Source: Escherichia coli (GTDB lineage: Bacteria > Pseudomonadota > Gammaproteobacteria > Enterobacterales > Enterobacteriaceae). From it: a stretch of DNA of 64,000 bases. Numbering within the stretch: position 1 is the first letter of the stretch; every line of letters starts with the position of its first letter. Shown here in pieces: positions 60,154 to 64,000 of the stretch. Under the pieces are notes generated by a model. That model ran no database searches. It saw nothing but the letters and a program-made list of their open reading frames with translations, and was not told where the DNA came from. Location: the NCBI RefSeq assembly GCF_036507355.1, contig NZ_AP027877.1; one strand, written 5' to 3'. Made by a program: the position numbers and the translations under genes.

Positions 60154-61344
60154 CTATGCCGCATTCCCTTTCGCCATGGGAGCCAGTGCCACAGGCAACT
60201 CTTTACCCAGCCCCTGCACCAGCGAATCTTGCGTAATTTCGCTGATCGATTTCGCGCCAGTCAGCGTCATCGCCACTTTCATCTCTTTTTCGATCAGATT
60301 TAGCAGGTTAGCTACACCCGCCTGGCCCGCTGTTGCCAGCGCATACAGGAAAGCACGACCCAGCAGTACGGTGTCGGCACCGAGCGCAATCATACGCACG
60401 ACATCAAGCCCGTTACGAATTCCGCTATCCGCCAGAATGGCGATATCACCTTTCACCGCATCTGCAATAGCAGGCAGTGCACGGGCGGAAGAGAGTACAC
60501 CGTCCAGCTGGCGGCCACCGTGGTTAGAAACCACAATTCCATCAGCACCAAAACGTACTGCATCGCGCGCATCTTCCGGATCGAGGACCCCTTTGATCAC
60601 CATCGGGCCATCCCAGAAATCGCGGATCCACTCAAGGTCTTTCCATGAGATGGACGGATCGAAGTTATTCCCCAGCCAGCCGATGTAATCTTCCAGTCCG
60701 GTCGGTTTGCCGAGATAAGCTGAGATATTACCTAAATCATGTGGACGACCGTTCAGGCCCACATCCCACGCCCATTGCGGATGCGTCACCGCCTGCAAAT
60801 AGCGGCGCATTGCCGCGTTCGGGCCGCTCATTCCAGAATGCGCATCACGGTAGCGTGCGCCCGGTGTCGGCATATCCACGGTGAAAACCAGCGTCGAACA
60901 ACCCGCTGCTTTTGCTCGCTCCAGCGCGTTACGCATAAAGCCGCGATCGCGCAGTACATAAAGCTGGAACCACATTGGGCGCTTGATGGCTGGCGCGACT
61001 TCTTCAATCGGGCAAACGGAAACCGTCGAGAGAGTAAACGGAATGCCATGCGCGTCCGCCGCTTTGGCTGCCTGAACTTCGCCACGACGCGCATACATGC
61101 CACACAAACCCACCGGAGCCAGTGCCACCGGCATCGACAATTTCTCATTAAACAGCGTCGTTTCCAGGCTTAAGTCGGACATGTTTTTCAGAATACGCTG
61201 GCGCAGCGCCACTTCTGACAAATCTTCCACGTTGCGGCGCAGCGTGTATTCAGAATATGCACCCCCATCCATATAGTGGAACAGGAACGGCGGCAGAATG
61301 CGTTGCGCTGCGGCGCGATAATCGCTGGCTGCGGAAATAATCAT
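60154..61344 (-). CDS. lldD: L-lactate dehydrogenase (FMN-dependent)
   Basis: 396-aa [35 protein letters not shown]... Confidence 0.95.
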
Positions 61345-62117
61345 GCGTTTTTCTCCCTCGAATGCTCATTATGCTCACCGGGCAGGCGGGTAATCCGTGC
61401 GTGGCGAGCCTGATCTTCATCGAATCGTTTCATGGTGGTGTGAACAAAACTAAGGTGCGCCATCATTGCTTTACGCGCCCCGTCGGCATCACCAGCAAAA
61501 ATGGCGTCAATGACAGCCTGATGTTGTTCGGTCAGTTGTGAAAAAACCGGTGGCACCAGATACATCCGCTGACGGCTATGCTTCACTGAGGATTGCAGGA
61601 CATCGAAGAAACCGCGCATGGTTTGCAGCAGCACGATGTTATGTGAGGCTTCGGCAATCGCCAGATGAAAACGAACGTCCGCTTGTGAGGCGATATCCGG
61701 GTCTTCGCTGAGCGTTGCTTCAAAGCAAAGCTGAATCTTTTCTTTGTCGCCTGGTGTGGCGCGCATTGCCGCATGCCATGCGGTGCTGGCTTCAATGGCG
61801 TAGCGGGCTTCCAGAATATCGAAACTGTAATCCGGATCATCGGCCATCAGCGTTTTTAGCGGCTGGACGATGTTTTGCTCCGACCATGTGTCATGACGCC
61901 AGCGAATAAACGTCCCGCCGCCGCGTCGACTGAGCAGCACGCCTTCGCTCACCAGTTTTGCCAGCGCCTCGCGCAGTGAATTACGTGATACGCCGAGTTG
62001 CATCGCCAGTTGGCGCTCAGCGGGCAACTTCATGCCCGCTTCCAGGTTTTTTTCATCAATCAGCGCCCGCACACGATCGGCAACCTCGTCTGACAGGCGT
62101 CTGGGTAAAACAATCAT
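61341..62117 (-). CDS. lldR: GntR/FadR-family regulator of lld operon
   Basis: ATG at 62117 ([38 protein letters not shown]...). Confidence 0.9.
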
Positions 62118-63772
62118 TAAGGAATCATCCACGTTAAGACATAAGCCTGAAGCGTGGTGATCACGCCCACCATACAGGTGAAGATCAGGCTGTGTTTGAC
62201 AGTAAAGCGGAACAAATCAGACTCTTTGCCCACCAGGCCTACCGCCGCACAGGCGATAGCGATAGATTGCGGGGAGATCATCTTACCGGTGACGCCACCG
62301 GTGGTATTGGCGGCAACCAGCAACAGATCAGAGACGCCAATTTGTTGTGCTGCGGTGGCTTGCAGCGCGGCGAACAGGGCGTTAGATGAGGTATCCGACC
62401 CGGTCAGGAATACCCCCAGCCAGCCGAGGAACGGCGAGAAGAAGGTGAATGCATGACCGGTGTGCGCCAGTGCCAGCGCCAGTGTTGATGACAGTCCGGA
62501 ATAGTTCGAAATAAAGGCGAATGCCAGCACCATACCGATGGAGTAGATGGGCAGAGCCAGTTCTTTCAGCGTGCTGCCGAAGGTGCTGATAGCGTCAGAC
62601 GGTTTCATCTTCAGCCAGACAACCGAGAGCAGCGCAGCAAACAGAATGGCGGTACCGGTGGCAGAGAACCAGTCGAACTTAAACACGGCGGCATAGGCTG
62701 TAGCCTCGCTGACCACTGGCGGCATACGGGCAACCAGTTTATCGAGGTACGGCATCGGAATATTGATCACCCACTCATACAGCGCGCCACCCGATGCGAA
62801 CAGGGCTTTAAACGGCGGGATACTCCACAGTGTTACGGTAGCGGTCAGGAACAGGAACGGTGTCCAGGCACGTAACACCTGGCCCGCGGTGTAACCGGTG
62901 TGGGCCAGCGTCATATCAACCTGTGACGCTCCCAAATCACCAAAACGGAATACGCGCACTGGCTGCCAGCGTTTGAGGAACAGCGTCAGGCAGAGCAGTG
63001 ATACCAGCGAAGAGATAATGTCCGGCAGCTCCGGCCCAATGAAGTTAGAGCTAAGGTACTGAGCGATGGCAAACGAGCCGCCCGCAACCACGACCGCAGG
63101 CCACGTCTCTTTGATACCGCGCCAGCCGTCCATAATCGCCATGATCCAGAACAGCACGATAATGGTCATAAACGGTAGCTGCCGCCCCACCATCTGGCCA
63201 ATCTCAAAGCTGTCGATACCTGTTACCTGTCCGGCAACCAGGATTGGAATGCCCATCGCGCCAAATGCCACTGGCGCGGTGTTAACAATCAGGCACAGCC
63301 CGGCGGCGTACAGTGGTTTAAAGCCCAGACCGACCAGCAATGCGGCGGTAATTGCTACCGGTGCGCCAAAGCCTGCAGCTCCTTCGAGGAACGCGCCGAA
63401 ACAGAAACCGACGATCAGCATTTGCAGGCGCTGGTCTGGGGTTATCGAAAGAATAGACGAGCGAATGATGTCAAACTGCCCGGTTTTCACCGAGATCTTA
63501 TAGACGAACACTGCTGCAATAATGATCCACGCGATGGGCCACAACCCGTAGAAGAAGCCATAAACCACCGAGGCCAGTGCGTTAGCGACCGGCATTTTAT
63601 AGAACAGCAAAGCCACGGCAAGGGCGATTGCCACTGTCCATGAGGCGGCGATGTATCCTTTCAGTTTGAGCTTAATCAGCGCAAAGAAGAAAAACAGGAT
63701 GGGAAGCGATGCTATCAGGCTGGAAAGCCAGATATTCCCGGCGGGATCGTAGTTTTGTTGCCAGAGATTCAT
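62117..63772 (-). CDS. lldP: L-lactate permease
   Basis: ATG at 63772 ([30 protein letters not shown]...), AGGAGA SD. Confidence 0.9.
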
Positions 63773-63844
63773 TGCAGGTCTCCTGGAGTCCACGCACATC
63801 GTGTAATGAGTCTGTTGCTCATCTCCTTGTCACACGTTGTGTAA

Positions 63845-63861
63845 AAGTGGCACTGCCAATT
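63845..63861. promoter_or_regulatory. candidate LldR operator (aagtgg-cactg-ccaatt)
   Basis: Near-palindrome of AATTGG-type half-sites upstream of lldP. Confidence 0.4.
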
Positions 63862-63970
63862 GTGTTGTGTAGGGATAATGACAATGAATGGTTAACTAAA
63901 TGTTATGTATTGGCAACATTGATGTGAGTTTTAATTGGGGAATTGTGAACCAGAGGTCAGATAAGCGAAG

Positions 63971-63987
63971 AATTGGTAGGGCCAATT
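63971..63987. promoter_or_regulatory. candidate LldR operator (aattgg-taggg-ccaatt)
   Basis: Perfect 6-bp inverted repeat AATTGG/CCAATT with 5-bp spacer upstream of lldP. Confidence 0.5.
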
Positions 63988-64000
63988 CTTGTGGGGGAGA

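Follow-up and report, generated by a model that had tools for sequence, protein, structure and literature searches.

The two palindromes flanking the lldP promoter are almost certainly O1 and O2, the LldR-bound operators of the E. coli lldPRD operon, through which the promoter is proposed to be repressed by looping and switched to activation by lactate. In the window (the whole 64,000-nucleotide stretch of E. coli DNA that was analyzed), both 17-mers put forward by the first-pass annotation were found on the plus strand as claimed, AATTGGTAGGGCCAATT at 63971..63987 and AAGTGGCACTGCCAATT at 63845..63861. On the minus strand, in the sense of lldP, the former reads AATTGGCCCTACCAATT and corresponds to O1, located upstream of the promoter and also reported as a PdhR box, and the latter reads AATTGGCAGTGCCACTT and corresponds to O2, located in the 5′ leader downstream of the putative transcription start. 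In O1, perfectly palindromic 6-bp arms enclose a 5-bp center; O2 is an imperfect palindrome with a single departure, AAGTGG versus AATTGG. Their centers lie 126 bp apart (63979 minus 63853), which amounts to 12.0 helical turns at 10.5 bp per turn, and both sites fall inside one 228-bp noncoding stretch directly upstream of lldP. O1 and O2 are already known, having been published in 2008, and their detection here is a correct rediscovery. It thus carries little discovery value, as the operators mapped at that time are now standard lactate-biosensor parts; it does show that the first reading, made from sequence only, had the coordinates, the regulator family, and the architecture right.

The genes downstream of the pair, all on the minus strand, are those of the lldPRD operon. 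The first gene, lldP (62117..63772), encodes the L-lactate permease (Pfam Lactate_perm PF02652, 784 bits) and is followed by lldR (61341..62117), encoding a GntR/FadR-type regulator with GntR and FCD domains, and by lldD (60154..61344), encoding the FMN-dependent L-lactate dehydrogenase (FMN_dh PF01070, 426 bits). The lldR product is a true LldR, scoring 499.7 bits against the NCBIfam LldR equivalog model NF007741, whose cutoff is 311. No structure of E. coli LldR is present in the PDB, where the nearest solved relatives are PdhR entries. Translation of lldP starts at ATG 63772, with an AGGAG ribosome-binding site at 63784..63780, in agreement with the RefSeq annotation of an identical strain. 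The alternative start in the list of open reading frames, ATG 63799, which adds a minus-strand extension over 63799..63773, was rejected because the annotated start is 63772 and is the one preceded by AGGAG.

The last 401 bases of the window were matched in 5420 of 5426 complete E. coli genomes, with 100% identity to strain 1919D62. O1 ends only 13 bp from the window end, and the DNA beyond it was taken from identical E. coli genomes. Alignment of the promoter with that of K-12 MG1655 revealed differences at 2 of 228 positions: a C-run on the upstream side of O1 is shorter by one C in the window, and a T is replaced by C between O1 and the −35 element. The O1 and O2 17-mers were identical. Since these differences lie outside the boxes, the published K-12 results apply directly. 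Compared with the K-12 lldPRD operators, the window has the same 17-mers, orientation, 126-bp spacing, and downstream lldP-lldR-lldD order, with no difference of substance.

The assignment of the boxes to LldR, a GntR/FadR-family regulator as had been claimed, is carried by published binding data. Table 1 of Anzai et al. 2023 (PMC10272880) prints two LldR boxes at lldP, AAtTGGcCctACCAaTT and AAgTGGcactgCCAaTT; the first is the reverse complement of 63971..63987 (O1) and the second is the plus strand of 63845..63861 (O2). The same study gives a 17-bp LldR box consensus, AAnTGGTCnGACCAnTT, against which O1 scores 12/14 and O2 10/14, and it states that the two lldP boxes are consistent with the sites of Aguilera et al. 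2008. In that work, lldP was the strongest genomic SELEX peak of LldR (intensity of 62.9 versus at most 13.8 elsewhere), the lldP fragment was gel-shifted by LldR at low concentration, and lldP promoter activity depended on lactate and lldR, induction by lactate being lost in the lldR mutant. Furthermore, PMC3582500, citing Aguilera 2008, states that LldR binding requires the O1 sequence in its lldP-sense form. The first-pass annotation had named comparison with published footprints as its check; the printed box strings of PMC10272880 and PMC3582500 agree with the two palindromes and do not place the lldP sites elsewhere. The operator sequences are not printed in two lactate-biosensor papers (PMC8827060 and PMC9775004).

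Four secondary sources state that one site lies before and the other after the transcription start, and that repression depends on both (PMC3424551, PMC5412874, PMC8689689, and PMC7969014). Repression needs LldR at two sites flanking the start, and activation needs the LldR-lactate complex at the upstream site (PMC3424551). Engineering of the promoter required both O1 and O2, with O2 placed after the start site (PMC7969014). A model in which an LldR tetramer forms a DNA loop has been proposed, with the distance between operators described as important (PMC5412874 and PMC8689689). The annotation had suggested that the paired arrangement could support DNA looping, and the LldR-LldR loop proposed in the literature, together with the spacing of 12.0 turns, is compatible with this suggestion.

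We also considered whether the palindromes could be chance matches with no function, a reading that we regard as having practically no chance of being right. Palindromes that are short and AT-rich occur frequently between genes, and a search of the whole window for AATTGG-N5-CCAATT (AATTGGNNNNNCCAATT) with up to one mismatch, which returned exactly two matches in 64 kb, O1 and O2, compares with 0.32 matches expected in the shuffled window and with two or more matches in 3 of 100 whole-window shuffles. From the shuffle rate, however, about 0.001 sites are expected per 228 bp, for a chance pair at about 1e-6, and a chance pair is very unlikely because both sites share one 228-bp noncoding stretch, which moreover adjoins the cognate regulator gene. 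The looser published-type pattern AANTGGNNNNNCCANTT (AANTGG-N5-CCANTT) matched O1 and O2 with no mismatch, and its sole other match in the window, at 18468, carried one mismatch; a scan of this type at up to one mismatch detected no third LldR box in the window promoter. Both sites are also conserved with fixed spacing across genera, among the species in the matches listed. Finally, O1 and O2 are identical to experimentally bound sequences, and chance origin was rejected because these published binding data already refute it (PMC10272880).

The core promoter between the two sites was assigned from sequence, and its exact transcription start and hexamers are putative. The candidate sigma-70 promoter (63888..63916, minus strand) combines a −35 hexamer TTGCCA at 63916..63911, a 17-bp spacer, and a −10 hexamer AACCAT at 63893..63888; both hexamers are conserved in the cross-species alignment, among the species in the matches listed. 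A sigma-70 consensus scan of 63700..64000 found no promoter, and this, with the weak −10 hexamer, fits an activator-dependent promoter. In the original mapping by Aguilera and colleagues, O1 is said to lie at −105..−89 and O2 at +22..+38. From these positions, which reproduce the observed 126-bp spacing, we take the transcription start to be near G 63882.

A candidate ArcA site lies in the same region. The consensus used for the ArcA box was GTTAATTAAATGTTA, and its only match in 64 kb with up to two mismatches allowed was the 15-mer GTTAACTAAATGTTA at 63891..63905 (plus strand), which has one mismatch, against 0.13 matches expected. This ArcA-box-like element extends over parts of the −10 hexamer and the spacer, and most of it is conserved between genera, among the species in the matches listed. 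Its position fits the ArcA operator described between O1 and O2 (PMC8689689) and the known repression of lldPRD by ArcA under anaerobic conditions, the operon being listed as directly repressed by this regulator (PMC3798270).

Since O2 is part of the 5′ leader, we also asked whether its conservation could reflect an RNA structure in the lldP leader (63882..63773, minus strand). RNAalifold, applied to the 10 species among the matches listed, paired GGCAG..CC, in the right half of O2, with GG..CUGC of the Shine-Dalgarno/pre-AUG segment and predicted two small hairpins as well; in the UGAG/CUCA hairpin, one pair changes from GC to AU in two species. The pairs between O2 and the Shine-Dalgarno segment were all invariant and the covariation contribution was only −0.74 kcal/mol, which lends a leader structure no backing other than conservation of the sequence itself. 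Covariation in the predicted leader fold is too weak for claiming a structure.

In the mechanism that we favor, the transcription start would have O1 about 97 bp upstream of it and O2 about 30 bp downstream, and because 126 bp corresponds to 12 helical turns, the two sites would be on the same face of the helix. LldR dimers would occupy both O1 and O2 when lactate is absent, and their interaction would loop out and repress the weak core promoter, both sites being needed. Either L- or D-lactate would then release the repressing complex, with O2 vacated in the published model, after which LldR at O1 would activate transcription. Binding of LldR to the region, the two box sequences, the need for both sites, and the dual role of the regulator are shown in the literature, and the cooperation of the dimers bound at O1 and O2 probably works through a loop. 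The LldR loop is a model derived from genetics and phasing, and we know of no direct physical demonstration of it.

How well the boxes and their spacing are conserved was evaluated within and across species. Among six E. coli alleles (the window, K-12, and four divergent strains, with promoter identity down to 93.9%), O2 was invariant in all six, O1 was constant except for its outermost base in one strain, and no indels were present between the two sites. For the cross-species comparison, one genome per species was scanned for AATTGG-N5-CCAATT followed 95 to 125 nt later by TGG-N5-CCA, which permits center distances of 109 to 139 bp, and matches were sorted by tblastn with the LldP, LldR, and LldD proteins of the window. 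The lldP-linked matches listed were from Escherichia albertii, Citrobacter werkmanii, Citrobacter youngae, Citrobacter sp. FP75, Leclercia adecarboxylata, Enterobacter sp. Bisph1, Enterobacter sp. BIGb0383, Kluyvera genomosp. 1, and a soil MAG. Because the scan required perfect O1 half-sites, the conservation seen in the O1 arms is in part circular, and the set omits species with a diverged O1, such as Salmonella. At the positions left unconstrained by the scan, the central 5 bp of O1 were 94% conserved, with four of five positions invariant (10 species among the matches listed), and those of O2 were 88% conserved, the TGGCAG..CCA core and its flanks being kept across genera among the matches listed. 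One further match, on contig CALXDF010000207.1 of a MAG binned as "uncultured Oscillospiraceae" (L012), carried an lldP 99% identical to that of E. coli together with identical O1 and O2; this contig is most likely a binning contamination.

Among the matches listed, which cover 10 species (E. coli counted once) from at least five named genera, nine species had a distance of 126 bp between O1 and O2, the exception being E. albertii with 125 bp. By comparison, the distance from O2 to the ATG varied from 80 to 86 bp in the 10 species among the matches listed. A spacing of whole helical turns (12.0) that is constrained in nine of 10 species among the matches listed is what looping calls for, and this invariant operator spacing, set against variable neighboring distances, adds small independent support for a geometry-dependent mechanism, either looping or phase-locked. 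As read from these alignments, the fixed spacing supports a geometric constraint, which stops short of proving a loop.

An alternative without any loop would have O2, at about +30, block promoter escape or elongation by itself, with O1 serving only as the activator site of the LldR-lactate complex and the spacing arising from separate anchoring of each site to the promoter. Conservation of the spacing is equally expected if each site is separately anchored to the core promoter. The published deletions can also be read in this way, as induction was abolished when the distance from O2 to the −10 element was cut by 10 bp and sensing was unaffected by removal of 10 bp between O1 and the −35 element, a difference that shows the two sites to be positioned relative to the promoter each in its own way (PMC8689689). 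However, a simple roadblock at O2 does not predict that both sites are needed for repression (PMC3424551 and PMC7969014), and the tolerated 10-bp deletion preserves helical phase, as the loop model expects. Moreover, the 54-bp stretch from O1 to the −35 element is only 66% conserved yet free of indels apart from a single gapped cell in the alignment of the 10 species among the matches listed. We judge the arrangement without a loop unlikely. The deletion results fit an O1 that depends on helical phase and an O2 that must keep its position, the tolerated deletion not being decisive as to phase.

Another possibility is that O1 is mainly a PdhR operator and that the lldP promoter is chiefly controlled by PdhR through this site, with LldR sharing it or playing a secondary part. 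Genomic SELEX of PdhR indeed gives AATTGGccctACCAATT at lldP as a PdhR box (13/14), and the lldPRD mRNA rises 3.3-fold in a pdhR mutant (PMC7660256). PdhR is also the best non-self NCBIfam match of LldR (182 bits), and the box consensus of the two regulators is nearly identical, the PdhR box (AATTGGTnnnACCAATT) sharing the 17-bp 6-5-6 layout and the outer arms of O1 and O2. Against PdhR as the chief regulator, LldR has by far its strongest SELEX peak at lldP, a low concentration of LldR is enough to shift the fragment, and the lldR mutant is no longer induced by lactate (PMC10272880); binding of PdhR comes in addition to that of LldR and is no alternative to it. Primary control by PdhR is thus quite improbable, more so than the absence of a loop, and LldR remains our preferred regulator at both operators. 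The effector of PdhR is pyruvate and that of LldR is lactate, and because O1 is a PdhR box and the operon is derepressed in the pdhR mutant, O1 probably integrates pyruvate and lactate signals.

At the level of the operator core, the FadR subfamily is described as binding a TKGT/ACMA palindrome with 3 nt between GT and AC (PMC4494728), and the core shared by PdhR and the FadR subfamily is TGGT-N3-ACCA. O1 has TGGC on one side of this core (TGGC-CCT-ACCA, one arm being canonical), and O2 has TGGC and GCCA (TGGC-AGT-GCCA, neither arm being GT/AC). Relative to TKGT-N3-ACMA, the inner T/A is therefore replaced by C/G in three of the four arms of O1 and O2, while the TGGN-N3-NCCA geometry is kept.

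Other lactate-responsive regulators of the FadR type offer a further comparison. According to PMC6957213, the LldR proteins of Corynebacterium glutamicum and Pseudomonas aeruginosa (Georgi 2008; Gao 2012) belong to this group and bind a TGGT..ACCA-type inverted repeat at the lactate-utilization operon, as in E. coli, but are described there as plain repressors, unlike E. coli LldR. In two Pseudomonas loci recovered by our scan (L067 and L095), there is one clear box, flanked by lld genes that are divergent or adjacent, and the other match to the pattern looks fortuitous.

Paired boxes were also observed upstream of pdhR. In Vibrio, Aeromonas, and Grimontia, genes for PdhR equivalogs (NCBIfam NF007001, above cutoff) are preceded by two boxes of the AATTGGTnnnACCAATT type, for example at L039 (5446-5596), L028 (7271-7423), and L114 (1177-1316), with at least about 25 further loci. 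Among the matches listed, their centers are 126 to 139 bp apart (139 in all Aeromonas loci and 136 to 138 in Vibrio), 139 bp being the upper distance limit of the scan, so that wider spacings of pdhR boxes fall outside this range. Such pairing of boxes may hold generally for the LldR/PdhR clade. Because the 126-bp spacing is held across genera despite spacer drift and leader indels, and because pdhR has paired boxes as well, one could go further and suggest that paired, loop-forming operators are the ancestral general design of the LldR/PdhR/GlcC clade of FadR-type regulators. We advance this only tentatively, as a possibility that is more likely to fail than to hold; if true, paired operators would not be a peculiarity of E. 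coli lldPRD.

Repression loops with two operators are well known from lac (O1-O3, 92 bp), gal (OE-OI, about 113 bp), and ara (araO2-I1, 210 bp). As in lldPRD, two dimer sites in these systems bracket the promoter at whole helical turns, and both are needed for full repression. AraC, like LldR, is a single protein that acts as repressor and activator depending on its ligand. The regulators involved (LacI/GalR and AraC) belong to protein families that differ from that of LldR.

On the other side of O1, just past the end of the window, strain 1919D62 has a gene for a YadA-like adhesin as the upstream neighbor of lldP (L001, 2040-3401), and K-12 has yibL there (L002, 166-528), indicating that the neighborhood upstream of O1 varies among E. 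coli strains. A terminator-like hairpin followed by a T-run (AAGGGCAATTCTCTGATGAGGATTGCCCTT TTCTTT) was also noticed on the lldP strand about 20 bp upstream of O1 (L002, 627-666), outside the window, and probably shields the lldP promoter from transcription of the gene before it.
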